55,392 nt of DNA from Alphaproteobacteria bacterium (GCA_017522445.1 JAFWZK010000045.1:1-55392); one strand, 5' to 3'. Positions 33,202 through 55,392 are shown, counted from the first letter of the stretch. Notes: a model not told the origin generated them from the sequence alone. A program made the numbers and translations.

Positions 33202-33294
33202 GTTAGTTCTCCTTTTTTTGTTCTGCGCATATTATAAAGCATATTTCCAGATAATAAACAAGAAAAAACACCGTCATGATGACGGTGTAAATAC

Positions 33295-37850: not shown

Positions 37851-37878
37851 TCTTTTGCCTGGGGTTAAAGGATGTATT

Positions 37879-40363: not shown

Positions 40364-40365
40364 GC

Positions 40366-40836
40366 TTATGCGATCTTTCTTACTGCTGGCATAACGTGTT
40401 TTTCGAAATATTCACGCTGGTCTGGGAATCCAATTACTTTTTCATCAACCAGTGCCTCGGAATCCAACCATACAACCTTTACATTGTCTTCACGGACTTC
40501 GCAGAATTCTAGAACTGTATCGCTTGGGACTTTTGCTACGAAGAAAATGTGGGCTTCATTGTATGCACCACGCTTTTCTACTCTGTGTTCCGCTACTTTG
40601 AATCTGTATGGTTCTGCCATTTGTTCTGCTAATTCAACCATGAATTCAGATGATTTACCCAATTCTTCATTTAATTCACGTCTTAATGCTGCCTCTGCAG
40701 TTGTTTCGCCATCATCAAAACGGCCACCGATTGTTCCATATGCACCTGGTGCGTATTCCAAAATAGCAATTTGTTTTTTGCCGTCCTGAATGCGAACAGG
40801 GATGATGTATGCTGCATAGCTTACTTCTTTAATCAT
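40366..40836 (-). CDS. Nudix hydrolase
   Basis: The Nudix box is GGRFDDGETTAEAALRRELNEELG. Confidence 0.85.
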   Translation of the reverse strand: MIKEVSYAAYIIPVRIQDGKKQIAILEYAPGAYGTIGGRFDDGETTAEAALRRELNEELGKSSEFMVELAEQMAEPYRFKVAEHRVEKRGAYNEAHIFFVAKVPSDTVLEFCEVREDNVKVVWLDSEALVDEKVIGFPDQREYFEKHVMPAVRKIA

Positions 40837-41330
40837 TTTTTTCTCCTTGTGTTGTATAGCATTTCCATATCTGTTATTGCCTTTTTAGACTTTAGCACAG
40901 ACTCAAAGGAATATAAAGCCTTTTCATATTCTTCGTTGTCATCTGGTGCATGTATCAGATTACCTGGGGCATATTTATCCCATGGCGAGCAATATTTGTT
41001 TCTAATGTGTCTTTTGATTGTTGGTCCCTTTGCCAGCGCATCATATCCCTCAACAACGACCAGGAGATGTTCTAGGCCTTGGCGGTCTTTTCCTAGTTGG
41101 TAGTCTAGGGTCATGTCTTTCCAATCTGTGGTCATTTCGCTTTTGAAATTTGGGTCCAGGACAGGTTGGTATCCTATTAGCATATCGTAAGTCATTACAA
41201 ACTTGGCAGTTGCCAATACCGATAGGTCGTTGGCTTTGAGTTGTTTGTAGAATTCTATTTTAGCGAGCAAGGTCCTAAGGCTCAACTGTAGAGCATCAGG
41301 TTTTAATAAAAAAAGTGTCTTTTCTGACAT
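40833..41330 (-). CDS. Nucleoside-diphosphate-kinase-like protein (divergent)
   Basis: EKTLFLLKPDAL corresponds to the NDK N-terminus ERTFSIIKPDAV. LLVVVEGYDALAK corresponds to IVVSVLEGENAV. NLIHAPDDNEEYEKALYSF corresponds to N-x-x-HGSDS..E.A.REI..FF, and the catalytic-position His is retained. Confidence 0.55.
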   Translation of the reverse strand: MSEKTLFLLKPDALQLSLRTLLAKIEFYKQLKANDLSVLATAKFVMTYDMLIGYQPVLDPNFKSEMTTDWKDMTLDYQLGKDRQGLEHLLVVVEGYDALAKGPTIKRHIRNKYCSPWDKYAPGNLIHAPDDNEEYEKALYSFESVLKSKKAITDMEMLYNTRRKK

Positions 41331-41443
41331 TTGCGTTTCTTTTTAGAATAGCAACAATTTTTTATTTGTCAATTTTTTTGTATAAATAATTGCAAGTGGG
41401 AATTTTTCTTATTAAAATTGTATTACTAGCTAGGGGTAAAATA

Positions 41444-42538
41444 ATGAAGGTTGCGATTTTTTGTGATTATTTACATTCGTTTGGTGGTACTGAATACTAT
41501 AATGCCACTTTGGCGATGGAGTTGAAAAAGCGTGGCATTGATGTTCGGGTGTTTATCTGTGAAAAAACTCAGAACTCTTACTGGATTGATAGGTTGGCTG
41601 ATTGTGGAATAAAGACATATGAACCGGCACGAAATCGTATAGACAGGGACGATCGTAGTGTAGATTATGAATTTGTAGATTCTTTTATTGATGAGTTTGT
41701 TTCGTGGTCGCCAGATGTTATACACGCCAGTCCTGCAGCCAATTTACTAAAAGCTTTCTTGGCTCATAAAAAAGCACCAAAGGTTCCAATTGTTGCTACT
41801 GAGCATACCACACCATGTGCTGATTCTGCATTTTGGTATCCGGATGATTTCAAGAAACTGCTATCTAATGTAAGTTGTTTTGTTGCTACGTGCAGGACAT
41901 CTGCTAAGGGTATAAAGGATTTTCATGGCTATTCTGGGCCTGTCAAAATTGTTCCGCATTTTATTCGCCCCCCAGTTCATAAGAAAGCGACCAGAATACC
42001 TTATTCAGTTGGTTGTATAGCAAGAATGTCGCCAGAAAAGGGGATTGGTGTTTTGCTTGTTGCCTGGAAGATGGTAGTTGCGGCGATTCCGGCAGCAAAA
42101 CTATATTTATATGGTGATGGCCGTGTAAAGTCCTATTTTGAACGTCTGGCATTTTCTTTAGGCTTGCAAAATAGTGTTGTTTTTGCTGGCACATACGACC
42201 CTCGGGATGGTGCTGGTGCTATTGCTGGTAGACACGATATTTTTGTGCAGCCGTCATTGTTTGAGAGTATTCCGACATCTCTTATTGAGCTTGGTATGCT
42301 TGGAAAGCCTATTGTGGCCACAAACGTTGGCGGTATAAGAGAGTTGGTACGTCGAGACACGGGTATCTTGGTTCAGAGTGGTTCGACTGATAAACTTGCC
42401 AGGGCTATAGTGAAGCTATTGTCATCTAAGGAGTTGCAGAAAGCTTTTGCGGCCAATATTCAGAAATCTGTTGGTAATAGGTATGATCTGGATAAAGCGG
42501 TTAATACAATCATTGGTGTGTATAGGTCTGTTATATGA
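41444..42538 (+). CDS. Glycosyltransferase family 4 (GT-B)
   Basis: MKVAIFCDYLHSFGGTEYY.. and the C-terminal FVQPSLFESIPTSLIELGMLGKPIVATNVGGIRELV. Confidence 0.8.
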   Translation: MKVAIFCDYLHSFGGTEYYNATLAMELKKRGIDVRVFICEKTQNSYWIDRLADCGIKTYEPARNRIDRDDRSVDYEFVDSFIDEFVSWSPDVIHASPAANLLKAFLAHKKAPKVPIVATEHTTPCADSAFWYPDDFKKLLSNVSCFVATCRTSAKGIKDFHGYSGPVKIVPHFIRPPVHKKATRIPYSVGCIARMSPEKGIGVLLVAWKMVVAAIPAAKLYLYGDGRVKSYFERLAFSLGLQNSVVFAGTYDPRDGAGAIAGRHDIFVQPSLFESIPTSLIELGMLGKPIVATNVGGIRELVRRDTGILVQSGSTDKLARAIVKLLSSKELQKAFAANIQKSVGNRYDLDKAVNTIIGVYRSVI

Positions 42539-43710
42539 AAAGCGTAATTTATGCATCAGACGGTTATAGAAAATTTTTCAACAGGTCTGTTGAAAAAGTT
42601 CATTTTTTGGATGAACTAAATGTTCATAGTTTGTCCGATTGCACCATTGTAATCGATCCGGACCATAAGTTTGGTGTTTTTGATTCTGCCGGTATGTTTG
42701 TTCCCAGCTCTGGGCAAAAGCGGAATAAGGTTATTCAAACGCCTCCTGTCTTTATGACTGCTAATGATTATTTGGATGTTGAGGCAGTATATTTAGGAAC
42801 TCTGGAGGATCATTTTGGACATTTCCTGTTAGAGCACACAACCAGGTTATATGCTTTACTAAGGCAACGTTATCAGGGAAAGAAATATATTCTTGTCAAC
42901 AATCGTAATTTACCTGGTGTATCTGGCTTTGTCTATCAGTTGTTTGCGTTGTTGGGGATTGATCGGAATGATGTTATTGTTGTGTCATCATCGGTTGGCA
43001 TTCGCAAATTGTATGTCCCAGAGGTGGCATTTGAGATACCAAATACTTCGTCCAAGGCTTTTGGAAAGATATTTGATGCTGCTGCCAGCGCAATCACATC
43101 TGATATTAGGCATGACAAGGTGTATGTTTCTAGGTTGAAATTAGGAGACAGGGCCACATATGGCGAAGAACAGATTCAGCAAATATTTGCCTCTAATGGT
43201 TTTGCTGTTATTTATCCGGAGTGCTTGTCCTTTGACGAACAGGTTGCGTATATGCGACATTGTAAGTGTTTGGCTGGTATAGCTGGTTCTGCGTTGCATT
43301 TGTCTTTGTTTATGCCGTCTGGGGGTACGGTTGTTCAGATAAAAAGGAATAAACCATATCGGGATAATAGCGATACTCAGTATCTATTGTGTGCAACAAA
43401 GGGCTGTGACTTTGTCCTGGTTGATTGTGCTTTGGAGAGGCTGCCAACTCATCATTGGTCGGAATTTCCGCAAATCGTTGGACCAACCAAGTACTTGAAG
43501 CAATTTTGTGCGGATTGTGGTTTTGTTATTTCTGGGGCAGATATGGTTCCTGGTACTCAATATAAAAAAGCATATCGTGCTGCCTTTCGTTCTAAGGGTG
43601 GGTTTGTTAGATATCAACTTAAGCGGATGCTGGTGTATGTAGTTCCAAGGTTGATCCCATGTGCTACGAAAAAGACTTCGGTGCGTAGATGGCTAAACAA
43701 GCACATATAA
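42535..43710 (+). CDS. DUF563/GT61-like glycosyltransferase
   Basis: EDHFGHFLLEHTTRLYAL and GIAGSALHLSLFMPSGGTVVQI resemble the DUF563 pattern. It overlaps the upstream stop by 4 nt. Confidence 0.5.
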   Translation: MKSVIYASDGYRKFFNRSVEKVHFLDELNVHSLSDCTIVIDPDHKFGVFDSAGMFVPSSGQKRNKVIQTPPVFMTANDYLDVEAVYLGTLEDHFGHFLLEHTTRLYALLRQRYQGKKYILVNNRNLPGVSGFVYQLFALLGIDRNDVIVVSSSVGIRKLYVPEVAFEIPNTSSKAFGKIFDAAASAITSDIRHDKVYVSRLKLGDRATYGEEQIQQIFASNGFAVIYPECLSFDEQVAYMRHCKCLAGIAGSALHLSLFMPSGGTVVQIKRNKPYRDNSDTQYLLCATKGCDFVLVDCALERLPTHHWSEFPQIVGPTKYLKQFCADCGFVISGADMVPGTQYKKAYRAAFRSKGGFVRYQLKRMLVYVVPRLIPCATKKTSVRRWLNKHI

Positions 43711-43769: not shown

Positions 43770-43797
43770 TTGCCTTTTTTGTGTATTTGTGTATAAT
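43770..43797 (+). promoter_or_regulatory. Sigma70-type promoter of leader RNA A and the Hsp70-like operon
   Basis: TTGCCT (43770-75), 16-nt spacer, TATAAT (43792-97). Confidence 0.6.
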
Positions 43798-43803
43798 GAG
43801 ATT

Positions 43804-44036
43804 TGAATCCATAGGGATATGGGTTCGGGGGCTTTTGCACGCCCATGTCATTCGGTGTAAGACGGCAGCATCGCTATTCCGATATCGTTCCTGTGGTTTT
43901 GCATCGTCATTTATCCCTGACTGTATTACAGTCGGGGGGCTGTCCGCCATACAATAGGGGATATCCTGAAAGCGGATGGGATCACTAATGACATGATTTG
44001 CAAACTCCCCGACCGCCTGCATTCCTGCGGCGGTTG
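43804..44036 (+). ncRNA. Structured leader/ncRNA element, copy A (unknown class)
   Basis: It shares six ordered conserved blocks with copy B: TTGAATCCA, TGGGTTCGGG, ATTCGGTG, ATCCCTGA, GTCGGGG and CCCCGACCGCC. Hairpins are GAATCCA/TGGGTTC, GGGC/GCCC and CCCTGACTG/CAGTCGGGG, plus a terminal hairpin CCGCC..GCGGCGG. An RBS and ATG follow at 44059. Confidence 0.5.
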
Positions 44037-44058
44037 ATCTATTGAAAGGAGTCAATGC

Positions 44059-44313
44059 ATGCGTATCACTATCTATCATACTGGACCTGTCGATTTTATA
44101 AGTAGGGTTTTAATTATTTTCGGAGCACCAGTTCTTGGTTTTATTTCTGGTGGTTACATTGGTTCTTGTATAGCAGAGATGTTTGGTTTTGTGGGTGGCA
44201 ACGCAGAGGCGGTGTTTTGCGTGCTGCTTATAGTTCTTTTTATCGCCCTCTATATTTATCTTGGGGTAAAACTTAAATTATGGCTTGAAAAATTTTTTCA
44301 AGAAAATTTGTAA
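44059..44313 (+). CDS. Small 2-TM membrane protein
   Basis: RBS aaaggag. Two hydrophobic helices: VLIIFGAPVLGFISGGYIGSCI and AVFCVLLIVLFIALYIYLGV. Confidence 0.65.
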   Translation: MRITIYHTGPVDFISRVLIIFGAPVLGFISGGYIGSCIAEMFGFVGGNAEAVFCVLLIVLFIALYIYLGVKLKLWLEKFFQENL

Positions 44314-44331
44314 TCAGATGGAGAATGGTCA

Positions 44332-44877
44332 ATGAGTGAGCAAAACTTGGATTTTATCTTGGAATTGTATAATGCACCTAAGTTGTTTAAGAAGCTTTTG
44401 GGGCATTTGTCCCCTGATGAACAGAAACGTTACATGGGGCAAATCAATTGGTTTGTAAAAAAATGTAACGATTTTATCACTAAGTCTGGCTATTCGTTTA
44501 TTGTACCAGAGGGTGTTTATGATGTTGGGATTGCAGCAACGCCATTGAATTTGTCTGATTTTGATAAAGATGAGGAGCTCTTAATTGATCAGGTTATTGA
44601 GCCAATCGTTATGTTTCAGGGCAAGGTTGTAAAGTCTGGTGTTGTTTTGTTGAAATCTGCAAAGGAACCAGAGCCGGTTGTTGAGGTTGTTGAACCTCAG
44701 GTTACGGTTTCTGCCGATATTCAGGAGGAGAATGTAGTAGATACAGAAGCGGTGGTTGTTGACCCAAGTATTGAATTTGTTGAAATTGATTTTTCTAATG
44801 CAGAGGTTGTTACCTTGGATGATGTGTTAGCAGAAACAAAAAATAATGAAAATAATGAACCAAAAGGCGATGCATAA
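44332..44877 (+). CDS. GrpE-like nucleotide-exchange-factor candidate with an acidic tail
   Basis: SGYSFIVPEGVYDVGIAATPLNLSDFDKDEELLIDQVIEPIVMFQGKVVKSGVVLLKS is colinear with the GrpE C-terminal beta-domain pattern (G-V-x-x-I..G..FDP..H.A......V..V.q.GY...gr.iR.A.V.V.K). RBS ggaga. The stop overlaps the Hsp70 start (TAATG). Confidence 0.45.
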   Translation: MSEQNLDFILELYNAPKLFKKLLGHLSPDEQKRYMGQINWFVKKCNDFITKSGYSFIVPEGVYDVGIAATPLNLSDFDKDEELLIDQVIEPIVMFQGKVVKSGVVLLKSAKEPEPVVEVVEPQVTVSADIQEENVVDTEAVVVDPSIEFVEIDFSNAEVVTLDDVLAETKNNENNEPKGDA

Positions 44878-47369
44878 TGACAAACTTTATAGGTATTGAT
44901 TTAGGGACTACTAATAGTGCTATTTCATCATATGATGGTGAAAATGTAAAAATCTGGAAGAGTTCTGATGGGTATGATGTTACGCCGTCTGCTATTTTTG
45001 TGGACAAAAGAGGAAATAAATATGTTGGTAAGAAAGCATACAACCAGATGGCGAATGATCCGGAAAATGTGGCGGTTCGTTTTAAGCGCATGATGGGTAC
45101 AAGCACTATGGTTAGTGTCCCAAATTTTGGCAGAGAGTGGTCACCAGAGGAATGCTCTGCGGAGATCTTGAAAACTATGTTCAATTATTTACCTGATGAA
45201 ATCAAGAATGATCCGGAGTTGGGAACTGTCATAACTGTTCCTGCGGCATTTGACCAAAAGGCCAAAGATGCTACACTGGCTGCCGCTAATATGGCAGGTA
45301 TTGGAAAAGTTGCTCTTATGCAGGAGCCGGTTGCAGCGGTTATGAGTATCATGAAGACTCGTCCGGAGGATGGTATATTCCTTGTTTATGACTTGGGTGG
45401 TGGCACCTTAGATGTTGCTGTCGCAGAAAGCACAAATGGGCGAGTAAGTTTGATGAGCCATGGTGGGATTTCAGTTTGCGGCGGTCGTGATTTTGACCGT
45501 GTGTTAATTGAGAAGGTTGTCTATCCTTGGATGCAAAGTCGCTTTAAATTACCTGATGAATTTTGGACCTTGGATAAGTATAAATCTATTGTTGGAATTA
45601 TAAATCATGCTACTGAAGAAGCAAAAATTGCTTTATCTGATAGAGAAAGTGCTACCATTTCGGTTTCTGAATCACAGTTGCGTATTCAGGATGAGGCAGG
45701 AGAGGATTTGTACTTGGATGTGGAAATTACACGTGAAATTTACAACCCTTTGATTGAGGAACAAATTCAGGATACAATTAAGGCTGTTCTTGACACGTTA
45801 AATGCCGCTGGTCTTAAAACAGAGGATGTTGTTCGTATAGTTTTTGTTGGGGGGCCAACAAATTATAAACCATTGCGTGATAAGGTTTCATCTCAGTTGG
45901 GTATTCCTGCGAATACCGAGGTCAATCCTATGACAGCCGTTTCAGAGGGGGCGAGTATTTATGCTGAATCCATAGATTGGTCTTCCCAGGCGCATGCGAA
46001 AAAGAATACTCGTGGTTCTATCGAGTCTAAGGGGGCGGTAAATGTAAAATTTGACTATATTGCTCGCACTCCGGATTCTAAGACTAAGCTTGTTGTTACC
46101 CTTGATTCTGGTGGTAGGCAGGGATATGAATTCCAGATTGACTCGCTAGATACTGGTTGGTCTTCTGGCAAAATTGCATTAGGCGACAAAACTCCAGTTG
46201 ATGTCCTTTTATCTAAAAATGGTGAAAATACGTTTAAGGTTTTTGTCTTTAATGATTTGGGTGAAATTGTTCCACTGGAAACAAATAAAATCGTTATTGT
46301 TAAAACAGCAGCGACAATTGATTCTATCCCAGCATCTCATACTGTGTTTGTTGGTGTGTTGGATAAATTAGGTGGAACGCCTGTGCCAGAAATTTTGGTT
46401 AAGGCTGGTGATATGTTGCCAAAACGTGGAACCATTAGGTTAAAGGCAGCAGAAACACTAAAGGCTGGCGATATGGCCTCTCTAAACTTTAATTTGTGGG
46501 AGGGTGATATTGTAACTCCGATTGACGATAATCGCCCAATTGGCTGTTTCAAGATTTCTGGGACCGACTTTGATGATGGTGTCATTCCTGCTGGGGCGGA
46601 TATTGATTGTATATATGAAATGTCGGACGATGGTAACATAAAACTAGAAGTATCTATTCCATGTATTCGTGGTTCCTTTGATTCTACGAACAATTTCTAT
46701 TCTAGACAGGAAGGACAAAAAGACTATACCGATGCAGCTGAGGGAATTATAGCGGATGCGGAATCTACCCGTAGTCGTGCGGATGATATGGCTGAGAAAA
46801 TTGACGACCCCGATTTAGATTCTGCGATTACAAAGTTGAATAATGCTGCCTCGTTGTCTTCCGATGAAAGGGATCCAGAAAAAGCAAGAGCTGCTGAAGA
46901 ACAGGTCTTGCAGGCAAAAAAGGAATTGGCAAAAGTTCGCAAAAAACATTTGAAGACGATCCGCCAAATAGAGTTGGACAAGATGCTGGAGGTTTTTGAA
47001 CCTCTGCGTAAGGTGGCAAGTACCACTGATATAAGCACTATTGATAATCTTGTTGCCAGCGCAAAGCGTACGATCGAACGTGAAAACAATGAATTTGAGG
47101 GCTATATCAAGGAAATTCGCTTTAAGATATTCGCAATTTTGTGGAAGCAAGATTGGTTCGTTGTTGCTCGTTTCAAGAATTTGGCCACACGTCGTCAAAC
47201 TGTAACCGACAAAGCTAAGTTCAATAGCTTGATTGCCGCCGGTAATAATGCGATGGAACATGACAATATTGACCGATTGAGACAAATTGTTGGTGAGTTG
47301 GAAATGATCTGTATTGGCGGCAGTGCCGGCTTTGAAGATATGAATATTACAAATATCGTAAGAGGATAG
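44877..47369 (+). CDS. Hsp70 (DnaK)-superfamily ATPase, 830 aa, non-canonical
   Basis: Phosphate-1 motif IGIDLGTTNSAISSYDG. ITVPAAFDQKAKDATLAAANMAGI..LMQEPVAAV is present. Phosphate-2 motif FLVYDLGGGTLDVAVAE and GGRDFD are present. Adenosine motif VFVGGPTNYKPLRDKV. The SBD-beta-like region is IPAGADIDCIYEMSDDGNIKLEVS, followed by a long helical C-terminus. Confidence 0.9.
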   Translation: MTNFIGIDLGTTNSAISSYDGENVKIWKSSDGYDVTPSAIFVDKRGNKYVGKKAYNQMANDPENVAVRFKRMMGTSTMVSVPNFGREWSPEECSAEILKTMFNYLPDEIKNDPELGTVITVPAAFDQKAKDATLAAANMAGIGKVALMQEPVAAVMSIMKTRPEDGIFLVYDLGGGTLDVAVAESTNGRVSLMSHGGISVCGGRDFDRVLIEKVVYPWMQSRFKLPDEFWTLDKYKSIVGIINHATEEAKIALSDRESATISVSESQLRIQDEAGEDLYLDVEITREIYNPLIEEQIQDTIKAVLDTLNAAGLKTEDVVRIVFVGGPTNYKPLRDKVSSQLGIPANTEVNPMTAVSEGASIYAESIDWSSQAHAKKNTRGSIESKGAVNVKFDYIARTPDSKTKLVVTLDSGGRQGYEFQIDSLDTGWSSGKIALGDKTPVDVLLSKNGENTFKVFVFNDLGEIVPLETNKIVIVKTAATIDSIPASHTVFVGVLDKLGGTPVPEILVKAGDMLPKRGTIRLKAAETLKAGDMASLNFNLWEGDIVTPIDDNRPIGCFKISGTDFDDGVIPAGADIDCIYEMSDDGNIKLEVSIPCIRGSFDSTNNFYSRQEGQKDYTDAAEGIIADAESTRSRADDMAEKIDDPDLDSAITKLNNAASLSSDERDPEKARAAEEQVLQAKKELAKVRKKHLKTIRQIELDKMLEVFEPLRKVASTTDISTIDNLVASAKRTIERENNEFEGYIKEIRFKIFAILWKQDWFVVARFKNLATRRQTVTDKAKFNSLIAAGNNAMEHDNIDRLRQIVGELEMICIGGSAGFEDMNITNIVRG

Positions 47370-47372
47370 GAT

Positions 47373-48788
47373 ATGATGGACCCTTGGTTACCAAAAGACT
47401 ATAAAATTGCAAAGGATGTTGAGATCAGAAATCTTGTCTTTGCAAATGATACTTGGCAAATTTATAAGACGAATAACAACAAAAATTTGTTGGTTAGTCG
47501 TCAGCCGTTAGTGGACAAGTGGGTTGATCAAGGGTTATTAAATCCTGAGGTCTTCTTCAAGTGTGATTTTGGTGGTGACAACTTTAGTTGTTTGTTGTCT
47601 TCGGAGCGGTTCCTATTAGCACCACTAAGCTATAAGTTCTTTGAGGTGGATAAGGTTTCGGCCTTAGCTTTTGCAAAGAGTCTTAGGGAAACTAGAAATA
47701 TCCTGAAGGATGTTCCGTTGGATGATGCTATTTATGTTGAACAGTATGCACGGTTGTTGCCTGTTGCTGAGTTGTCTGGTGGGCATGTTGATGATAGCCT
47801 ACTTTTAGGAACATGGTTAACCGGTGGGGTTGCTGTTCCGACTACTTCGATTAGAAGATTGAAAAGCCTGACTGCTAATTTCTCAAAGCAGGATCTGGAA
47901 GATATTATTGATGCCTCTGGTATAGAACAAAAGGTGCTGGATGGTCAGGTTGATTCAGAGGCGGCATTTTTAGATGACTTTGGCACAAGAAAACATAGTG
48001 CTGTTAAACCAACTAAGTTTTCTCTGCCTGGGGCCACGTATCTGGAAAATTTCTTTCATGAAAACGTTATTGATATAGTCCAAAATGCGGAACGGTATGA
48101 GAGTCTGGGAATTGGTTTCCCATCGCCAATTATTCTTTATGGTAAACCAGGTACTGGTAAAACTTACGCCGTTGAAAAGTTGGCTGAATTTTTAGATTGG
48201 CCAGTTTATAGCATAAATTCAAGTAGTATCGGCAGTCCATATATTCATCAAACAGGACAGAAAATTGCTGAGGTGTTCAATAAGGCGTTTGATACATCGC
48301 CATCTATTGTAATAATTGATGAAATGGAGGCATACCTTTCCAAGCGAGAGGGTGCGCAAGATTTTAAGGTCGAGGAAGTTGGCGAGTTCTTGCGCTTGAT
48401 ACCAGAGGCACCAAAGAATAAGGTGTTGGTTGTTGGTATGACTAACTTGTTGGAAAATATCGATCCTGCGATCCTTAGAACTGGTCGTTTTGACCATAAG
48501 ATTGAGGTAAGGATGCCAACAGCTGAGGACATTAAATCGATGCTTGATACGGCCCTTGCGAAATTGCCTAAGGAAGACGGTTTGGTATTGGATAAGGTGA
48601 TTGAAGCATTGACTGATAGACCACGTTCTGATGTTGCTTTTGTTGTTAAGGAGGCCGCACGATTAACCGCTTTTCGTGGTAAAGACAAAATTTCCCAAAT
48701 TGAAATTGATGATGCTCTTCAAGCTAGGGCATTGAAATCAACTGAAGACAAACCTAAAAGACGTATAGGATTTAACAATGATAATTAA
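47373..48788 (+). CDS. Classic-clade AAA+ ATPase with a ~240-aa unknown N-domain
   Basis: Walker A is ILYGKPGTGKTYAV. Walker B is SIVIIDEMEAY. The second region of homology/arginine finger is GMTNLLENIDPAILRTGRFDHKIEVRMP. It starts 3 nt after the Hsp70 stop. Confidence 0.9.
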   Translation: MMDPWLPKDYKIAKDVEIRNLVFANDTWQIYKTNNNKNLLVSRQPLVDKWVDQGLLNPEVFFKCDFGGDNFSCLLSSERFLLAPLSYKFFEVDKVSALAFAKSLRETRNILKDVPLDDAIYVEQYARLLPVAELSGGHVDDSLLLGTWLTGGVAVPTTSIRRLKSLTANFSKQDLEDIIDASGIEQKVLDGQVDSEAAFLDDFGTRKHSAVKPTKFSLPGATYLENFFHENVIDIVQNAERYESLGIGFPSPIILYGKPGTGKTYAVEKLAEFLDWPVYSINSSSIGSPYIHQTGQKIAEVFNKAFDTSPSIVIIDEMEAYLSKREGAQDFKVEEVGEFLRLIPEAPKNKVLVVGMTNLLENIDPAILRTGRFDHKIEVRMPTAEDIKSMLDTALAKLPKEDGLVLDKVIEALTDRPRSDVAFVVKEAARLTAFRGKDKISQIEIDDALQARALKSTEDKPKRRIGFNNDN

Positions 48789-50571
48789 AGAAAATCCCTT
48801 TTATATACTTGGTGCTAGTCTGCGAGACAATCGCCAAAAGATAATGTCCCTTGCGGAAGAAAAGAGCCTTGAAGTTGATGAGGCTGTTTGTTCTGAGGCC
48901 CGTATGGTACTTACAAATCCAAGAAGACGATTGGTGGCCGAGTTGTCCTGGTTCCCTGGAGTTAGTCTAAAGGAAACGTCAGTCATATTGAGTAAGTTGA
49001 AGTTTGGAGTTCTTGAGACAGAATTGCTCGATAAATTACCGCCTTTGGTTAGGTTTAACTTGTCTTTGGAGTTGTTGCTGCATGGAAAAAAGAAATTGAG
49101 TGATGCTGCTCTTGAAAAGAGTTTATTCGAACTAGCTAAATCATATGATGATATTAACGCTGATAGCTTGTTAAAAGTTATAAATGAAGAACGTAGCATT
49201 TCAGGATTCTCTGAGGTGTCAGATGTTGCTATTTTGGCCGAGGAAATTGAAAATATCAGGATCCAGGCTGTCCATTCATTACAAGATTTATTATCTGGTC
49301 GTTCTTTGACATCTCTAAACCATATTATGTTGGGTGTTCTGGCACGAGAGAAAAAGGATGGTTCTTCTTTGGAATTGGTTCAGGATTATATTGACAGCAT
49401 ATATGCGATGTCAGTTCAAAAGGATATGGAGACTTTAGATGAAGGGATAAAGTCCTCTATTGAGAATGTAAAAAAAGTGGCCGCAAGGAAAAATGTATCA
49501 AAATCTTACTTAGAGCAGGTAATTGATGAATTCCTCTCAAAGTTGGAGGATTACGATAACATTATGCAGCCTATGCAGGTAAGCATGCAAAATCGTGGCT
49601 TAGAACATACAGCAAGTAGAGAGATGGCTAGCCAGGTGCGCTTGTTGGCAATTCATTTGAGTACCAAGCACAAGGCATTTGATTTATCAGAACGAATTGT
49701 AAAAAAGGCAAAGGAGTTGTTTGCGGAGGTTAATACTTCTGCTGAACATTTTGCTGAGGACCTGTCAGCAATTACTCAGTTAAGGGAGTCTAAGGCAAAA
49801 CGGGAGAAGGAAATAACTTGCACAATTGAAAAGCGATCATTATTTTTCCCAAAAACTGTATCTATCAACCCCAAAAAAATTCAGTATGGTGAGACTGAAT
49901 ATCAATTGAATGAGATTACACATATTCGTTATGGTTTGACAGAACGATATGTTAATGGTTTTCATCAGGGAACTGATACCATGGTGGCATTTGGTGATTC
50001 TGAAGGTGAAACAGTCATAACTTGGATGGATAAGTATGATTTTAGGAAGTTTACAGATGCTCTATGGAAAGCGGTTGGTCCGGATTTGATTATGATTATG
50101 GTTGCACAACTTGCTCAGGGTAAGGATATTTACGGAACCATTTACAATGATGGTATTAAGTTGACCAAATCCAAGTTTTTTAGCTCAGAGACTAAATTCT
50201 TCAAGTGGCATGAGGTTGGTTGGGCTGAGATGAATGGAGCTATTCATTTTATGGCATTCAAAGAGAATGATTTTGTTAAAAGTTTTTCTTTCCAGGAAAT
50301 TAACAATGCTCACGTTATTTCTGTGATGATGCGAATATTCAAAGAACATCCTGCACGCACTATTAGTGAGGCATTTGGAATGTCTAAGGCCGATGCTAAA
50401 AAGGAACGTCAGGTTAGCTTCTCAGAGGATACGCCGGAGGATTCTGATGATTCAACTTCTGGAAATTCATCCTCAACCAATTCTGTGAATGATGAGAGTT
50501 CCGATGGGTGGCTTGGTCTATTCCTATTTATTTTCATTGCAATAATTATTGCAATACTTGGAGGTGCATAA
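48778..50571 (+). CDS. J-domain-like (HPD-less) tail-anchored protein
   Basis: The N-terminus ENPFYILGASLRDNRQKIMSLAEEK....ARMVLTNPRRRLVAELSWF is colinear with J-domain helices I-III (DYYEILGV....IKKAY..LA..YHPD....AYEVL.DP.KR..YD), but HPD is replaced by LEVDE. It has an acidic S/D-rich segment and then the C-terminal TM helix WLGLFLFIFIAIIIAILGG. It overlaps the AAA+ gene by 11 nt. Confidence 0.55.
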   Translation: MIIKENPFYILGASLRDNRQKIMSLAEEKSLEVDEAVCSEARMVLTNPRRRLVAELSWFPGVSLKETSVILSKLKFGVLETELLDKLPPLVRFNLSLELLLHGKKKLSDAALEKSLFELAKSYDDINADSLLKVINEERSISGFSEVSDVAILAEEIENIRIQAVHSLQDLLSGRSLTSLNHIMLGVLAREKKDGSSLELVQDYIDSIYAMSVQKDMETLDEGIKSSIENVKKVAARKNVSKSYLEQVIDEFLSKLEDYDNIMQPMQVSMQNRGLEHTASREMASQVRLLAIHLSTKHKAFDLSERIVKKAKELFAEVNTSAEHFAEDLSAITQLRESKAKREKEITCTIEKRSLFFPKTVSINPKKIQYGETEYQLNEITHIRYGLTERYVNGFHQGTDTMVAFGDSEGETVITWMDKYDFRKFTDALWKAVGPDLIMIMVAQLAQGKDIYGTIYNDGIKLTKSKFFSSETKFFKWHEVGWAEMNGAIHFMAFKENDFVKSFSFQEINNAHVISVMMRIFKEHPARTISEAFGMSKADAKKERQVSFSEDTPEDSDDSTSGNSSSTNSVNDESSDGWLGLFLFIFIAIIIAILGGA

Positions 50572-50572
50572 A

Positions 50573-50860
50573 ATGAATAAAAATTCTTGGTACATTGTTT
50601 GTTGTATTATGTTGGGTTTGGCTATTCTACCGGTCATGCCCTATGGATACTATATGCTATTACGTGTTGTTATCTGTGGTGTTTGCCTGTGGCAGATAAT
50701 TACATTATACAATAACAAGGGAACGCTGCCGGTTGGATTATGCCTGATTGCTCTGCTGTATAATCCTATATTCTCTGTTGGCTTAACACGTGGAGTATGG
50801 ACAATACTAAACATTGCCACGTTGATTTACTTTATATCAAATATGAAAGCAACTAAATAA
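50573..50860 (+). CDS. Small 3-TM membrane protein
   Basis: RBS ggaggtg. MNKNSWYIVCCIMLGLAILPVMPYGYYMLLRVVICGVCLW...LLYNPIFSVGLTRGVWTILNIATLIYF. Confidence 0.65.
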   Translation: MNKNSWYIVCCIMLGLAILPVMPYGYYMLLRVVICGVCLWQIITLYNNKGTLPVGLCLIALLYNPIFSVGLTRGVWTILNIATLIYFISNMKATK

Positions 50861-50872
50861 AGGATTTGTGAT

Positions 50873-51196
50873 ATGAAGGCTTTTTTTGCTGGTGTTGTAA
50901 TGGTAGCATTATTTGTTCTAGGTATAGTTCAATTTGGTGCATTGGTTAGTTTCTTTCACAATTGGTTTGACGGTTATATGTTTTTATCAGTTGTATTTGC
51001 ATCGTTTATTACGGGAATACCTCTTTTGGCCACAATCCTTGGTATACTTGGAGCTGTTAATGCTTGGGGCATGAATGTTTTTCTAGCTATACTGTTGTTT
51101 TGTCCGTTGCTGATAATTTATATCCCGATGATTTTAGGAATTCCTGTGGCTATTATCTTTGACAAGATTAAAAATTTGGGTAAGAATGTACAGTAA
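50873..51196 (+). CDS. Small polytopic membrane protein
   Basis: Four hydrophobic segments (AGVVMVALFVLGIVQFGALV, FLSVVFASFITGIPLLATILGILGAV, and so on). Confidence 0.6.
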   Translation: MKAFFAGVVMVALFVLGIVQFGALVSFFHNWFDGYMFLSVVFASFITGIPLLATILGILGAVNAWGMNVFLAILLFCPLLIIYIPMILGIPVAIIFDKIKNLGKNVQ

Positions 51197-51231
51197 GTTT
51201 GTTAGTTGTAATAAATTCTGTACTTGCAAAA

Positions 51232-51807
51232 ATGGGGTTTATAATGAAAGGGTTTCTTGGTTTCTTCATAGGTTCTTTGGCTGCGATTGTTCTATACCAC
51301 ATATCTCCAACCCTTTGTTTGGTTGTTTTACTTCCTATTGCTATTTACTATGCATTTTCTAGCAATAAGGAAAAAGCCCCTAAAAAAAGTGAGAAAAAGA
51401 TTGAAAATGAACGTTCGATTATCGAGAGTATGAAGAGTGCCATCTCTACACACCCATCATATGTTGATTTGTCTGTAGAGGAAAAAAGGGATTGTTTGTT
51501 AAACTTGCAGGCAGAGGCAGAGGGGATTTTAATTGCAAGCAAAAGGCAAAAAGATAATTTTGATAAAATGCCAGATGGCATAGCTAAAAGAATCGAGTCA
51601 CAAGTTATTGAAAAGTTTGCAACAACTGTTAAGGAAGCAGAGTTGCGTTCTATCGCAATTGGGGAAATGTTGGATGAGTTGAACATAGGAAAGGAAATCT
51701 CACAATCGGTCAACCAAAAGGATTCTGGAATTGAAAAAGTTAGCATCGGTGAGGTTACTACAGTTGCGGAAAACAAATCCTCTTGGATCGATGACGATGA
51801 TGATTAA
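51232..51807 (+). CDS. N-terminally membrane-anchored coiled-coil protein with an acidic tail
   Basis: FLGFFIGSLAAIVLYHISPTLCLVVLLPIAIYYAF, then a charged helical region ending WIDDDDD. The start is ambiguous (51199 TTG, 51232 or 51244 ATG). Confidence 0.55.
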   Translation: MGFIMKGFLGFFIGSLAAIVLYHISPTLCLVVLLPIAIYYAFSSNKEKAPKKSEKKIENERSIIESMKSAISTHPSYVDLSVEEKRDCLLNLQAEAEGILIASKRQKDNFDKMPDGIAKRIESQVIEKFATTVKEAELRSIAIGEMLDELNIGKEISQSVNQKDSGIEKVSIGEVTTVAENKSSWIDDDDD

Positions 51808-51952
51808 GAAATACTTCTGTTGATTTTTTGTTCGTTTTGTGATATAATGCCTGGCATCAGCGGACGGTTTTAAGCCGTCTTTTTTATTCTGCCCTGGCTC
51901 TGTGCTGGGGCTTTTTCTATGCGAGGTTTATATGTCTGGAAGGAGAGCTGGC

Positions 51953-52813
51953 ATGCAGCGTGCCAAAAACACTAAAAACGATGAATTCTATACCCAGTAT
52001 CAAGATATCGCTGCCGAATGTGACCATTACCTGGATCAGTTTAGGAATAAGGTCATATACTGTAATTGTGATACTGAGTGCAGCAATTTTGTGCGTTACT
52101 TTTTGAATCTAAAATCCCAGGGGATTATTCGTGATGTCATCTGGTCTGGTGGTCTGGGTGGCATTGACTTTCGAAGTCCGGAATCAGTTGCTATGTTGCA
52201 GCAGGCGGATGTGGTTGTTACCAATCCGCCTTTTTCTTTGTTCCGGCAATATGTGGCCCAGTTGATTGAATCAGGCAAGCAGTTCCTGATCCTGGGCAAT
52301 CAAAACGCTATTTCGTATAAGGATTTTTTTCCTTTGTTTAAGTCTGGTCAGGTTCGGTTGGGATACAAATCCTTTGGGCCGTTGTTGTTTGATGTTCCGG
52401 TGGTTGAACCAGACAAGACCTATAAGGTGGTTGATGGTGTGCCAAGGGCGGTGGTTGCGGTATGCTGGTTCACGAACCTGCAAACACCCGACAAAAATGG
52501 TCTGGTATTGTCCAAGCGGTATTTCGGTAATGAGTCTTGCTATCCAAAATACGACAACATCGATGCAATAAATGTTGGCCGTATCAAGGATATTCCGATG
52601 GACTATGATGGGTTGATTGGTGTGCCTATTACATTCATGGGTTGTTATAACCCTGCACAGTTTGTTTTAATGGGGCTGGACGAAGAATTGACCGACAATC
52701 GGGACCGTTGCACCATAAATGGTCAACGCCTGTATGCACGCATTTTTATACGCAAGAAATCGGCATCAGTTGTTGCCAATGACAATGATAACTTGACAGT
52801 CTTTGCTGCTTGA
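51953..52813 (+). CDS. N6-adenine DNA methyltransferase, EcoRI-methylase-like family
   Basis: Strong RBS aaggagag precedes ATG 51953. The N-terminus is KNTKNDEFYTQYQDI. The catalytic motif is DVVVTNPPFSLFRQYV, followed by KQFLILGNQNAISYKDFFPL. Confidence 0.8.
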   Translation: MQRAKNTKNDEFYTQYQDIAAECDHYLDQFRNKVIYCNCDTECSNFVRYFLNLKSQGIIRDVIWSGGLGGIDFRSPESVAMLQQADVVVTNPPFSLFRQYVAQLIESGKQFLILGNQNAISYKDFFPLFKSGQVRLGYKSFGPLLFDVPVVEPDKTYKVVDGVPRAVVAVCWFTNLQTPDKNGLVLSKRYFGNESCYPKYDNIDAINVGRIKDIPMDYDGLIGVPITFMGCYNPAQFVLMGLDEELTDNRDRCTINGQRLYARIFIRKKSASVVANDNDNLTVFAA

Positions 52814-52827
52814 TTCATAATCTTGCT

Positions 52828-53910
52828 ATGAAGAAATTCCTGCTGATTTTATCCGTCTTGGTCTGCATATTCTGTGGCCATAGTTCGGTTGTTCATGCAG
52901 CCAGCTATCACTCTGCTTTTGAGGTTGTCTTTGATAGCGAGAAGAAAGTTCCCGAATTCAAGTCCGTTGCAATTAAAAACCTGACCAAGTCTGAAACTAT
53001 GGTTCATGACCGGCATGAGTTCTTGGGTGTGCGCAAGCTGATTGATATTCTGGGTGAAGTAAAAGATGAAAGTCGCAAAGTTCGTTTCAAGACCAACTAT
53101 ATGCGTATTTCTGACAATGATGTTGTTTCGGTGGTTGATAAAGCGACCTGGTATTATTTCATCAATAAAAAGTCCAAGAAGCCGATTTATGCCCTGTATT
53201 ATCCGACCAATGATGTGACCGAGATAATGACCGAAGGTGATTTGTTGGTCATTGGCAAAGTCAGCGATACCGAGATTTATGTTATCTTGCTGGCCAAAGA
53301 TTCTGACAAACGTGCTGAATTCTTGAAACGGTTTGATGGTGGTCTTGCTGCAACTGGCAGCAAAAAAAAAGTAGATGACGACAAGCCATCGTTCTGGTCT
53401 AGGTTGTGGAATAAATCCTATGAAGTTGAGGAAACACAGCCGGTTGAGACACCGGTTGAATTGCAAGAGATTAAGGCAAAGGACTGGATTCGTATCTATT
53501 TTACCCCTGGTCCTGATTGTGAAAATAACATTGTAGCCGAGATTAACAAAGCCAAGAAAATTGACATCGCCGTTTATTCTATTACCAACAGAAAAATCGT
53601 TGATGCCATTTTGGCTGCAAAAAAACGTGGGGCAAAAGTGCGTGTCATTACTGACCGTCTGATGTCATCAAATAAGTATTCGCTAGATGAGGAATTGGCT
53701 GCTGCCGGTATTCCGGTTGTGATTCATAAAAAGCATAAAATAATGCACAACAAATACGCCATATTTGATAGCAAAACGATTGTGACTGGTTCCTATAACT
53801 GGACCAAGGCCGCAACCCAGTCCAATAGTGAAAACTGTCTGTTCTTTGAGCAGCCGAACAAAGAATACAGCATTCACTTTGAGGAACTGTGGGATTTATA
53901 CACTCAATAG
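52828..53910 (+). CDS. Signal-peptide-bearing phospholipase-D-family (Nuc-like) nuclease with an unknown ~200-aa N-domain
   Basis: Signal peptide MKKFLLILSVLVCIFCGHSSVVHA. The C-terminal PLD domain has the HKD motif HNKYAIFDSKTIVTGSYNWTKAATQSNSEN. Only one HKD copy is present, so dimerisation is expected as in Nuc/BfiI. Confidence 0.8.
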   Translation: MKKFLLILSVLVCIFCGHSSVVHAASYHSAFEVVFDSEKKVPEFKSVAIKNLTKSETMVHDRHEFLGVRKLIDILGEVKDESRKVRFKTNYMRISDNDVVSVVDKATWYYFINKKSKKPIYALYYPTNDVTEIMTEGDLLVIGKVSDTEIYVILLAKDSDKRAEFLKRFDGGLAATGSKKKVDDDKPSFWSRLWNKSYEVEETQPVETPVELQEIKAKDWIRIYFTPGPDCENNIVAEINKAKKIDIAVYSITNRKIVDAILAAKKRGAKVRVITDRLMSSNKYSLDEELAAAGIPVVIHKKHKIMHNKYAIFDSKTIVTGSYNWTKAATQSNSENCLFFEQPNKEYSIHFEELWDLYTQ

Positions 53911-53933: not shown

Positions 53934-53962
53934 TTGAAATCAGCCAATTTTTATGATAGAAT
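53934..53962 (+). promoter_or_regulatory. Sigma70-type promoter of RNA element B
   Basis: TTGAAA (53934-39), 17-nt spacer, extended -10 TGaTAGAAT (53954-62). Confidence 0.6.
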
Positions 53963-53968
53963 GGGATT

Positions 53969-54179
53969 GAATCCAAGATCTTGGGTTCGGGACTTTCCTA
54001 GTCCACTAAATTCGGTGCGAAAGCATCGTTAATTGATGTTATCGGTGTTTTTGCGCCGTTATCATCCCTGATTTTGGTCGGGGTGCTGTTGGTTATATAA
54101 AACGGATTTCCGGAAGACCGCAGAATCAGTAATTTAGTGATTAGGAACACCCCGACCGCCTTTTTCTTGGGCGGTTTTT
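53969..54179 (+). ncRNA. Structured leader/ncRNA element, copy B, ending in a strong intrinsic terminator
   Basis: It has the same ordered blocks as copy A: TTGAATCCA 53967, TGGGTTCGGG 53982, ATTCGGTG 54010, ATCCCTGA 54064, GTCGGGG 54077 and CCCCGACCGCC 54150. The terminator is ccgcc-tttttcttg-ggcgg plus T5. Confidence 0.5.
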
Positions 54180-54200
54180 ATATAAAATAGGAGAGATTTT

Positions 54201-54305
54201 ATGAAAAAAGTGTTATGTATTCTGCCAGTTCTGGCTTTGACAGCTTGTGACAAACCAACAACATCTATTGGAGGCCAATGGTGTAATCTCCACCCGTGGC
54301 ATTAA
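54201..54305 (+). pseudogene. Truncated small lipoprotein ORF
   Basis: RBS aggagag. MKKVLCILPVLALTACDKPTTS has the lipobox LTAC. From about 54265 the frame reads into foreign GC-rich DNA and stops at 54305. Confidence 0.5.
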
Positions 54306-55392
54306 GGCGGACGCATTTCGATACGGTGAGCTGGTCTTTGATGTCAACTCCGCCTACTTCTACAATCATGGCGGCTATGACTTCGCAAAACAATTTTACA
54401 CCGACGCTTACAAAGCCGCAATCAAAATCGTAGGCGGAGAGCAGTATATTTTGTCGGCGGTCATGCATGCCGACGAGCGCAACCGGGCCATGTCCGAGGC
54501 GCTGGGGGAGGACGTGTACCACTACCACCTCCATGTGGTCTATATCCCGGTGGTGGAGAAGGAGATACGATGGACAAAGCGGTGCAAGGACAAATCCCTG
54601 GTGGGCAAGGTCAAAGAAACCGTTATGCAGGTCAGCATGAGCAAAAAGTGGGCGTCCCAGCCCGCAGTAGACGAGGCCACCGGGGAGCCATTACGAACAG
54701 CAAAGGGCAAGCCTGTTCTGAGAAAGTCGTACAGCGTCTTGCAGGATGATTTCTTTCAGCAGATGCGCTCCGCTGGCTACACGGACTTGGAGCGTGGAGA
54801 GCGTGGCAGTTCCGAGGAACATCTGACGGTCACGCAGTTCAAGGTGAAGTGTGAACAGGAGCGGTTGGCACAGCTTCAGGAGGCGGCTGTGCTGGCCCAG
54901 GCCGAGGTTGACCGAAAGAACAGGGAGGCGGCAGCTGCCGAGAAGAAAGCGGCCCAAGCCAAGGCCAAACTAAACGATGTGGCCCCCATGCTGAAAGGCA
55001 TGGAGAAGCTGGCGGAGGAATTTTCCAGCGACCCGGAACAGGTCTTGCCAGAAGCGGGACCGCTGGAATCGGCCAGAGCCTACCGGGAGAAAAAGGCCAA
55101 GCCCTTATGGGCGAAGATCGTCAAGGTGCTGCGGTCTGTCTATCGGGCCTACTACGACCTCAAATCCAAATTTGAGCGGCTGCAAGCGGACTATGGCCGG
55201 GAGGTCAGCAAAAACAGCACCTTATCAGAAAGAATTTACGAGGTCTGCGCCGAGAGGGACAGTCTAAAGGGAAAGGTCAGAGACTATGAGCGGGTCAGGC
55301 GGGCCATTGGCCCGGAACAGGCGGACAGAATATTAGAGGCCGCTTACCAGCAGGAACAGGCTGAAAAGGAACGGAAACGGGCCGCAAGGCAA
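54271..55392 (+). mobile_element. 5'-truncated MobV/Pre-family relaxase (plasmid recombination enzyme) gene fragment; it runs off the right edge
   Basis: Frame 1 is open from 54241 to the window end. It reads ...GIKADAFRYGELVFDVNSAYF...ILSAVMHADERNRAMSEALGEDVYHYHLHVVYIPVVEKE...HLTVTQFKVKCEQERLAQLQ and then a coiled coil. The H-x-D-E...H-x-H motif III is present, but the N-terminal ~90 aa carrying motif I are absent. GC content is visibly much higher than the flanking DNA. Confidence 0.75.

Follow-up and report, generated by a model that had tools for sequence, protein, structure and literature searches.

The operon described here occupies positions 44059-51807 of a 55,392-nt stretch of DNA from an Alphaproteobacteria bacterium (GCA_017522445.1 JAFWZK010000045.1:1-55392; the whole stretch is referred to below as the window). 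It consists of eight tightly packed genes on one strand, four of which, encoding a mini-GrpE-like protein, an Hsp70, an AAA+ ATPase and a tail-anchored adaptor with a J-like N-domain, form a core that recurs in many bacteria. We interpret the operon as a subtype within a large family of self-contained Hsp70 machines that spreads horizontally; the machines would act at the inner side of the cytoplasmic membrane and have a role in defence, a reading to which we give about an even chance. The function of the cassette family is probably not a housekeeping one.

A conserved four-gene core

The order mini-GrpE, Hsp70, AAA+, adaptor and the tight spacing of these genes are constant through the 85 loci that we fetched for the family survey, which come from dozens of unrelated genomes. 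The core recurs in 71 to 83 of these loci, and the cases in which a part of it is missing are mostly short or truncated contigs. A mini-GrpE homologue lies directly upstream of the Hsp70 gene in 83 of the 85, usually with a 4-nt overlap; the AAA+ homologue is found in 81 and the adaptor in 71. Co-occurrence of the Hsp70, AAA+ and J-like genes across genomes, raised as a prospect in an earlier note on this DNA that was made from the sequence alone, was looked for and is present in most of the loci. In the window the operon is composed of the following genes.

44059-44313 (+): 84-aa protein, a lineage-specific accessory gene; open reading frame (ORF) with two predicted membrane helices (hydropathy)
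44332-44877 (+): mini-GrpE-like putative nucleotide-exchange factor, 181 aa; core residues ~1-108, acidic tail 109-181
44877-47369 (+): Hsp70, 830 aa; Pfam/NCBIfam, phmmer, AlphaFold, Foldseek and hhalign
47373-48788 (+): classic-clade AAA+ ATPase, 471 aa; PF00004
48778-50571 (+): tail-anchored adaptor, 597 aa; AlphaFold, Foldseek and hydropathy
50573-50860 (+): DUF6804 membrane protein, 95 aa from ATG; Pfam PF20619, three predicted membrane helices
50873-51196 (+): 107-aa lineage-specific protein; ORF with three predicted membrane helices (hydropathy)
51199-51807 (+): 202-aa lineage-specific protein; one or two N-terminal membrane segments and a charged tail ending DDDDD

All eight ORFs were confirmed. 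The junctions between them, a TAATG overlap at 44877, a 3-nt gap at 47370-47372, an 11-nt overlap at 48778-48788 and a 1-nt gap at 50572, lie where the earlier note had placed them when it described an eight-gene operon with translational-coupling geometry.

Relatives of the Hsp70 are found in at least 411 reference species (one genome per species) of many phyla; a sequence search with the Hsp70 gave more than 7800 matches, canonical Hsp70s probably among them. Homologues of ~831 aa that are 55-56% identical to the window protein occur in Gammaproteobacteria, Thermodesulfovibrionales and other groups. Public annotation of the components is generic ('Hsp70 family protein', 'ATP-binding protein', 'hypothetical protein'), and searches of the full-text literature returned no published description of the cassette. 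The earlier note had not recognised the operon as a described system, and neither these searches nor PADLOC, which calls no system here, give reason to revise that view.

The Hsp70

The Hsp70 is made up of a nucleotide-binding domain (residues 1-365), an inserted beta domain (~378-476), a region resembling the beta part of the Hsp70 substrate-binding domain (SBD-beta; ~490-610) and a helical lid (~621-811). Pfam HSP70 matches residues 5-364 with an expect value (E) of 6e-56, and phmmer matches DnaK nucleotide-binding domains in the PDB at E 1e-47. The protein has the actin-fold ATPase of the superfamily, with the phosphate-1, phosphate-2 and adenosine motifs and the catalytic residues; D8, K70, E150, D172, T177 and D179 are invariant across 38 homologues, which agrees with the earlier description of the ATPase motifs as intact.

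Pfam and NCBIfam recognise only residues 1-364. The AlphaFold model (predicted local distance difference test score, pLDDT, 79) has a beta region at residues 378-610 followed by helices at 621-811 (~190 residues). In Foldseek the alignments of this model with full-length DnaK or BiP span 630-790 columns and reach E 2e-34, while entries that hold the nucleotide-binding domain alone align over ~368 columns at E 1e-25. By hhalign, residues 481-590 are colinear with the DnaK SBD-beta at a probability of only 9.6%. The three methods agree on a substrate-binding beta sandwich and a helical lid, and thus with the SBD-beta-like segment and long C-terminal extension that had been noted before. Given the modelled domains, the alignment with full-length DnaK and the hhalign result, the protein is a complete Hsp70 in which an inserted domain replaces the canonical linker.

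The position aligned with DnaK R167 is an invariant alanine throughout the family. R167 is the contact partner of the aspartate in the HPD motif of J domains, and an alanine at this position fits the loss of HPD in the J-like partner described below. As regards classification, the NCBIfam scores lie far under the cut-offs for DnaK and HscA (for DnaK, 204 bits against 822.55 with TIGR02350 and 203 against 648 with NF001413).

The mini-GrpE-like protein

Scanned singly against Pfam, 73 members of the 181-aa protein family match GrpE (PF01025) more often than any other family (37 of the 73). None of these matches reaches the cut-off of 25.8 bits: the scores seen lie at 12-15 bits, and the best E is 0.002. 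Each of them runs colinearly along model positions ~54-161 of 165, covering for instance residues 4-118 of the member. Profile methods add little: the family profile finds nothing meaningful among PDB sequences, and hhalign of the same profile against E. coli GrpE finds nothing, although a single-sequence template is a weak one. The long N-terminal stalk helix of GrpE is not present, family members being only ~125 aa long and the matches starting at about position 54. That the 181-aa protein is a mini-GrpE that lacks the long stalk helix is thus weakly but consistently supported by these comparisons.

The GrpE likeness proposed in the earlier note therefore survives for the family, through the colinear sub-threshold matches, and does not extend to a match for the window protein. 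Its placement in the C-terminal half of the protein was mistaken: the GrpE-like part is residues ~1-108, and residues 109-181 are an acidic tail found in the closest relatives only.

The AAA+ ATPase

The AAA+ protein has a conserved N-domain (residues 1-235), a single ATPase module (236-456) and, at its C-terminus, an IGF motif that is also conserved. PF00004 matches residues 253-380 at E 6e-29, and the nearest solved structures are VAT, Cdc48 and p97 (E 3e-48). Conserved in 72 sequences are GPPGxGKT, IDEME, the pore loop SPYIH, the sensor 1 motif MTN and RxGRFDH. The PF00004 match, Walker A, Walker B, sensor 1 and the Arg-finger motif together place the protein in the classic clade, and both this assignment and the statement that its N-domain belongs to no assigned family, made earlier from the sequence, hold in the light of the Cdc48/VAT likeness and the 72 homologues.

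Two features of the family stand out beside these. The C-terminal I-G-F (48750-48788) is present in at least 90% of the 72 sequences and recalls docking motifs of other AAA+ proteins, and the pore loop reads S-P-Y-I-H and not the usual aromatic-hydrophobic-Gly.

The J-like tail-anchored adaptor

The adaptor begins with an HPD-less four-helix N-domain (residues ~1-76), continues as a helical scaffold to ~346, carries two PH-like domains at 348-523 and ends in an acidic linker and a membrane helix, which spans residues 576-597 or 579-597 (579-597 by hydropathy). The family is large: at 50% identity it forms 2697 clusters when the threshold is E <= 0.001, and 1159 when it is E <= 1e-30. No Pfam family matches the protein. 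In the AlphaFold model (pLDDT 86.5) two beta-rich domains are each followed by a helix, and the acidic linker is disordered. The local Foldseek matches to tandem PH domains are strong (Rtt106, probability 1.0); searched with the full adaptor model, Foldseek gave no global match, and no match of any kind at E <= 0.001 in the PDB or among viral structures.

The AlphaFold helices at residues 7-11, 19-29, 35-56 and 64-76 follow the pattern of a J domain. The HPD motif is not present; the loop in its place is K-S-L-E-V-D, in which K29 and S30 are invariant and L31 and D34 nearly so, and across the family it reads K/R-S-L-x-x-D. Foldseek matches the region locally to a Catovirus DnaJ with a probability of 0.96 over 87 columns, but at E 0.66. 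With six E. coli J domains hhalign reaches 19% probability over residues 4-23 (helices I-II) in the expected register, and Pfam DnaJ matches one of 27 adaptor members at E 0.19. PDB sequence profile searches with the full adaptor family and with its N-domain found nothing meaningful, and hhalign of the adaptor profile against DnaJ and against DjlC found nothing, single-sequence templates being weak. The earlier note had read the first 60 aa as a J-like domain lacking HPD: the missing motif and the fit of the helix pattern stand, but the profile searches against Pfam and the PDB do not make the case convincing.

The same N-terminal module is also fused to TPR repeats in a second gene of locus L072 (13976-16303), so that it behaves as an independent domain. 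Longer adaptor homologues of ~675 aa (for example L035 15679-17700) have an N-terminal Cys-rich, zinc-ribbon-like extension.

Membrane partners

Hydropathy bears out both the membrane segments that had been assigned to the four small proteins of the operon and the single membrane helix of the adaptor. The four small proteins are thus present here as described earlier, but they are not part of the conserved system: the 84-, 107- and 202-aa proteins have no homologue among the 85 related loci, and a DUF6804 gene follows the adaptor in only four of them (L006, L007 and L008, which are the nearest relatives, and L075). The DUF6804 protein itself passes the gathering threshold of PF20619 (63 bits against a cut-off of 27; E 3e-17). 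The 84-aa protein is present in metagenome contigs of the same species. For the 202-aa protein, gene callers give a start at 51199 or one farther downstream that yields 191 aa.

Most relatives have an adaptor that lacks the membrane anchor and encode instead one or two single-pass envelope proteins. Membrane proteins with a GFSGL motif are found in 46 of the 85 loci (examples are L001 16439-17890; L002 15632-16384 and 16427-17881; L035 13936-15654). Their layout is a conserved N-terminal GFSGLSxLxSD on the cytoplasmic side, a low-complexity linker, a membrane helix and, beyond it, a variable region, presumed extracytoplasmic, with peptidoglycan-binding domains, Sel1- or TPR-like repeats or others. 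The motif, GF[SA]GLSxL[AVT]S[DE], lies ~10 residues from the start of these single-pass proteins, and none is encoded in the window. It may serve the Hsp70 or the AAA+ ATPase as a docking peptide. Only the adaptor helix is present in 7 loci, only a motif protein in 39, both in 2 and neither in 17. Because the two mostly exclude each other, the machine seems to have two alternative means of attachment to the membrane.

Genomic contexts

Copies of the cassette lie on plasmids of Shewanella, Aeromonas and Vibrio, including one IncP plasmid. Two are Tn7-like cargo placed right after tnsABCDE, on Aeromonas caviae pKAM471_1 (L099) and on a Shewanella xiamenensis plasmid (L100). In Thiohalobacter (L089) the cassette sits among F-type transfer genes, between traU and a run with trbI and traC, and in Marinomonas (L090) helicases and transposases surround it. 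Defence genes are recurrent neighbours: in a Shewanella locus (L001) the cassette has integrase, toxin-antitoxin, UvrD-type helicase and type I restriction-modification genes beside it, and the last of these also adjoin it in L002 and L004. That the neighbourhood is conserved, and in defence and mobile-element contexts, is thus seen in the restriction-modification, Gabija-like, Tn7-like and transfer-gene neighbours. The version in L099 and L100 has 11 genes: besides the core there are genes for a peptidoglycan-binding protein, an RDD-family protein and five hypothetical proteins. The Hsp70 gene of the Aeromonas version (L099) is split.

A distant clade is represented on Sinorhizobium meliloti pSymA (L101, 5828-10514), where the Hsp70 is 32% identical to that of the window and the locus adjoins a type IIG enzyme and Gabija-like genes. 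It has retained the adaptor, the mini-GrpE and the Hsp70, together with a membrane protein, and has no AAA+ gene; its adaptor is 422 aa long and lacks PH domains and a membrane helix. Since the trio of adaptor, mini-GrpE and Hsp70 persists there in the absence of the AAA+ gene, we regard it as the deepest unit of the system. A tblastn search of phage records turned up nothing but DnaK-like nucleotide-binding domains, with the cassette in none of the records, and a megablast search with the operon found nothing in 5,426 E. coli genomes at the DNA level, the only level this search covers.

Relation to known systems

DnaK and ClpB work as partners, an Hsp70 with an AAA+ protein. The cassette resembles the combination of DnaK-DnaJ-GrpE with ClpB in having an intact Hsp70 with SBD-beta and lid, a GrpE-like gene immediately upstream, a third co-evolving partner with a J-like N-domain and the AAA+ ATPase as a fourth player. 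It differs from each part of that combination. Compared with DnaK, the cassette Hsp70 has a ~100-aa beta domain in the place of the hydrophobic linker, a lid of ~200 aa and alanine at R167; compared with GrpE and DnaJ, the mini-GrpE lacks the long N-terminal helix and the J-like domain lacks HPD. The AAA+ protein is a single-module, Cdc48/VAT-like enzyme, whereas ClpB is two-ringed, and unlike the canonical triad the cassette forms one mobile, membrane-tied operon.

The mitochondrial import motor consists of mtHsp70, Mge1, Pam18, Pam16 (J-like and lacking HPD) and Tim44, and pulls polypeptides by means of ATP. With its Hsp70 tethered to a membrane, its GrpE-type factor and a J-like subunit that lacks HPD, this motor recalls the cassette, by analogy only: homology is limited to the Hsp70 and GrpE folds, and no translocase channel is evident in the cassette. 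In layout alone, there is also a likeness to the specialised extra Hsp70 HscC of E. coli with DjlB and DjlC (the ybeQ-hscC cluster). DjlB and DjlC start with a J-type domain and the adaptor with a J-like one; in all three a long helical body, an acidic linker and a C-terminal membrane anchor follow, and the E. coli cluster encodes Sel1-repeat proteins, as do some relatives of the cassette. However, no sequence relation to DjlC is detectable (hhalign probability 0.05%), an HPE motif is retained in DjlB and DjlC, neither a GrpE-like nor an AAA+ gene occurs in the E. coli cluster, and HscC, with 556 aa, lacks the inserted domain and the long lid.

Among catalogued defence systems, the AAA+ protein resembles the IetA models (PADLOC, 3e-27; NCBIfam IteA, 1e-24). 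These matches are no better than those to Cdc48, PAN and FtsH and so reflect generic AAA+ similarity; with 87 bits against 510 for NF042959 and no IetS protease gene in the operon, we reject membership in IetAS. In PADLOC-DB v2 the Hsp70 and the adaptor have weak matches (E 8e-5 or worse), the 181-aa protein has none, and no system is called.

Hsp70s have been placed in predicted defence operons before, as CnuD of type III CoCoNuT systems and as McrB-Hsp70 fusions (PMC11090510). In the CnuD-type Hsp70s the Walker A-like motifs are degenerate; these proteins go together with the McrB GTPase, McrC and HEPN and are predicted to bind RNA (PMC11090510). By comparison, the ATPase motifs of the cassette Hsp70 are invariant and the cassette has no McrBC or HEPN partner; as the ATPase is intact and neither the operon nor the core contains McrB or McrC, membership in the CoCoNuT or McrB-Hsp70 group is likewise rejected. 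HSP70 and GrpE also occur together, with a DnaJ domain fusion, in predicted GTPase-centric conflict systems (Kaur et al. 2020, PMC7159879), which are built on GAP1-N2 or DO-type GTPases and FNIII-repeat proteins and found mainly in Actinobacteria and Firmicutes (PMC7159879). The cassette does not belong to them: it has no GTPase and has a Cdc48-like AAA+ protein and a PH-domain adaptor.

Possible function

We propose the following mode of action. The adaptor would recruit the Hsp70 to the membrane and stimulate it in a non-canonical way, since HPD is lost on the adaptor and the equivalent of R167 on the Hsp70, so that the interface between the two should itself be non-canonical. The mini-GrpE would recycle or reset the Hsp70. 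The Hsp70 would capture cytoplasmic segments of membrane partners, in most systems the GFSGL peptides and in the window subtype perhaps the small polytopic proteins or the adaptor itself; the AAA+ ATPase would then unfold or extract the captured protein, and a membrane effector or sensor would thereby be switched. The outcome would be defence against phages or mobile elements, probably through altered membrane integrity (abortive infection), by a system that travels with restriction-modification and other defence genes. We tentatively suggest, well short of regarding it as probable, that this constitutes a new class of prokaryotic immune system, in which a membrane-tethered Hsp70 cycle with its own exchange factor, an HPD-less J-like adaptor and a Cdc48-like unfoldase would sense infection via envelope-spanning partners, either the GFSGLSxLxSD proteins or small polytopic ones, and would bring about abortive infection by extracting or remodelling membrane proteins at the expense of ATP.

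Several observations weigh against this interpretation. The defence role is inferred from genomic context, and the client-capture and extraction steps are pure inference. Searches of Pfam, PADLOC and NCBIfam found no recognisable toxin, nuclease or protease domain in any component; no publication was found that links the family to defence, and PADLOC gives only generic AAA+ similarity (IetA, TRIP13). When the three nearest upstream genes are tallied in 49 loci, a count that has no genome-wide control, HsdR appears in five of them, HsdS in three, HsdM in three, WYL proteins in three and McrBC in one, and many cassette neighbours are ordinary housekeeping genes. At the level of the parts, the J-domain assignment of the adaptor N-domain is plausible but not established, and the window's own 181-aa protein has no Pfam GrpE match. 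Finally, the window subtype has no GFSGL partners and has small membrane proteins that are not conserved, so that its mode of action may differ, or it may have degenerated in part.

The lack of a toxin domain in particular keeps a serious rival in play, namely that the cassette is a mobile envelope or membrane proteostasis module, a portable Hsp70 with nucleotide-exchange factor, co-chaperone and an AAA+ disaggregase or extractase that raises the host's tolerance of heat, envelope or membrane-protein stress and is carried for its benefit, as horizontally transferred heat-resistance loci are. All recognisable parts are indeed chaperones or unfoldases, the pairing of Hsp70 with AAA+ mirrors DnaK-ClpB, partners with peptidoglycan-binding or Sel1-like domains point to the cell envelope, and carriage on plasmids, Tn7-like elements and transfer regions suits any useful cargo. 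We nevertheless hold this explanation to be somewhat unlikely: the cassette repeatedly adjoins restriction-modification, Gabija, UvrD-type and toxin-antitoxin genes, the accessory membrane proteins turn over fast round a constant core, which is more typical of conflict systems, the AAA+ protein is single-module and Cdc48-like and not a ClpB/Hsp104-type disaggregase, and the Hsp70 has no canonical J-domain interface. The same carriage might instead betray an accessory function of the mobile elements themselves, such as entry exclusion, establishment or the remodelling of envelope machinery in conjugation or transposition. The copy within the F-type transfer genes, the copies that follow tnsE in two plasmids, a Mob_Pre relaxase gene downstream in a contig of the same species and the frequent peptidoglycan-binding partners would all fit. 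Most loci, however, have no transfer or transposition genes within 10 kb, many being chromosomal and beside housekeeping genes, and the type of element varies by locus, as expected of cargo and not of core machinery, which makes such a role very unlikely.

There remains the simplest explanation, an ordinary DnaK/GrpE/DnaJ set or a chance juxtaposition of genes, whose chance of being right we regard as negligible. The nucleotide-binding domain is clearly Hsp70-like, as this explanation would have it, but the canonical interdomain linker, the HPD motif and the long GrpE helix are all missing, the gene order is conserved in more than 70 loci of many phyla, and the same cassette is carried on plasmids of Shewanella, Aeromonas and Vibrio, bacteria that have a canonical dnaK. 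The DnaK equivalog score (204 bits against 822), the plasmid copies and the gene order refute a housekeeping DnaK operon; the earlier note had already set the operon apart from the housekeeping dnaK-dnaJ-grpE arrangement, and the patchy distribution over phyla, plasmids and transposons bears this out. The interpretation as a membrane-tied defence machine competes chiefly with that of proteostasis cargo.

The leader RNA and the surroundings of the operon

The operon is preceded by a promoter-like site and a structured leader and is closed by terminator-like hairpins; a methyltransferase-nuclease pair and a second leader copy follow.

43770-43797 (+): promoter-like site TTGCCT, 16-nt spacer, TATAAT, found by scan; preceded by TGTG, by reading the sequence
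43800-44058 (+): structured 5' leader, 259 nt; fold z = -4.7, 0 of 200 shuffles as stable
51862-51911 (+): two terminator-like hairpins closing the operon; sequence scan
51902-53910 (+): EcoRI-type adenine methyltransferase and PLD-family nuclease, outside the core; PF13651 E 3e-82, PLDc_2 E 2.5e-29
53950-54203 (+): second, diverged leader copy; nhmmer E 1.6e-11; then a 34-aa truncated lipoprotein ORF at 54201

The leader element measures ~230-270 nt, and its two copies in the window, counted as an element, are placed at 43790-44058 and 53950-54203. Each copy brings a -10 box, followed by long-range helices and a terminator-like hairpin (GACCGCC...GGCGGTC and a U run), and then a ribosome-binding site and the ATG of a different gene; the -10 region is conserved in other copies. 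An additional copy is found in L007 (5914-6190, minus strand) ahead of a lipoprotein gene, and a pattern scan of metagenomes revealed at least 35 homologous copies (for example in L139, L140 and L142). They precede unrelated genes, mostly those of lipoproteins or signal-peptide proteins. In an alignment of 29 copies, compensatory double changes are seen at 21 of the 57 pairs of the consensus structure. In Rfam, no family reaches the gathering score with the leader or with ten other copies, and the sole match of the leader is to sRNA-Xcc1, sub-threshold at 29.7 bits against a gathering score of 53. To judge from the alignment, an upstream GTCGGGG could pair with a CCCCGAC that lies immediately 5' of the hairpin and so compete with the terminator. 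The structured leader RNA of the earlier note is thus real and strongly folded, but it belongs to an independent RNA family; the idea that it is specific to this operon is rejected, since copies stand ahead of many unrelated genes. It looks like an undescribed attenuator or riboswitch-like element of this bacterial lineage.

The GC content of the operon is 0.37-0.43. Over the window it is 0.37-0.46 from ~29 kb to ~54 kb, against 0.41-0.51 upstream and 0.52 past 54 kb. The low-GC island to which the operon had been assigned is therefore low in GC as claimed, but wider than the operon, running over ~29-54 kb and including a glycosyltransferase cluster. This cluster of glycosyltransferase, NUDIX and HAD-hydrolase genes (36873-43710) immediately precedes the operon and shares its low-GC stretch; tRNA-Glu and tRNA-Asp genes are found at 32595-33371. 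Ten large proteins encoded in the window were compared with NCBIfam and gave no informative family, the one match being to a repeat.

In PADLOC the methyltransferase and nuclease downstream give an MTase_II match and a weak DrmC match. By hydropathy the PLD nuclease has a hydrophobic, signal-peptide-like N-terminal segment, which recalls NucT-type periplasmic nucleases; the protein may be exported. Such an N-terminus argues against a classical restriction enzyme, and we accordingly doubt that the two form a classical restriction-modification pair. Downstream of the cassette there is a related methyltransferase in L007 (16724-17533) and a PLD-like fragment in L006 (8227-8460); a second methyltransferase-PLD nuclease pair lies in the same-species contig L091 (1-1486).

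The GC content rises to 0.52 right past the lipoprotein ORF that is cut to 34 aa (54201-55392). The same-species contig L091 has a Mob_Pre relaxase gene and an EF-G-like GTPase gene there. Together, the jump in GC and the Mob_Pre relaxase gene suggest that a mobilisable element was inserted near 54201.

Significance

Hsp70 systems rank among the most thoroughly studied of biological machines. The cassette represents a widespread bacterial version that comes with its own exchange factor, an HPD-less J-like partner, matched by the loss of the corresponding arginine from the Hsp70, and a Cdc48-like unfoldase as an integral part. Apart from the cassette, the leader RNA deserves attention as a candidate attenuator or riboswitch supported by covariation. 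Should the cassette serve in defence, bacterial immunity would gain a mechanism driven by chaperones, and the system would offer a simple model for the cooperation of Hsp70 with AAA+ unfoldases at membranes. If it is proteostasis cargo, it would bear on the spread of stress tolerance by plasmids and Tn7-like transposons, including plasmids of clinical and wastewater isolates of Aeromonas and Shewanella. Under either reading, the GFSGLSxLxSD peptide, the HPD-less interface and the IGF motif of the ATPase are directly testable.

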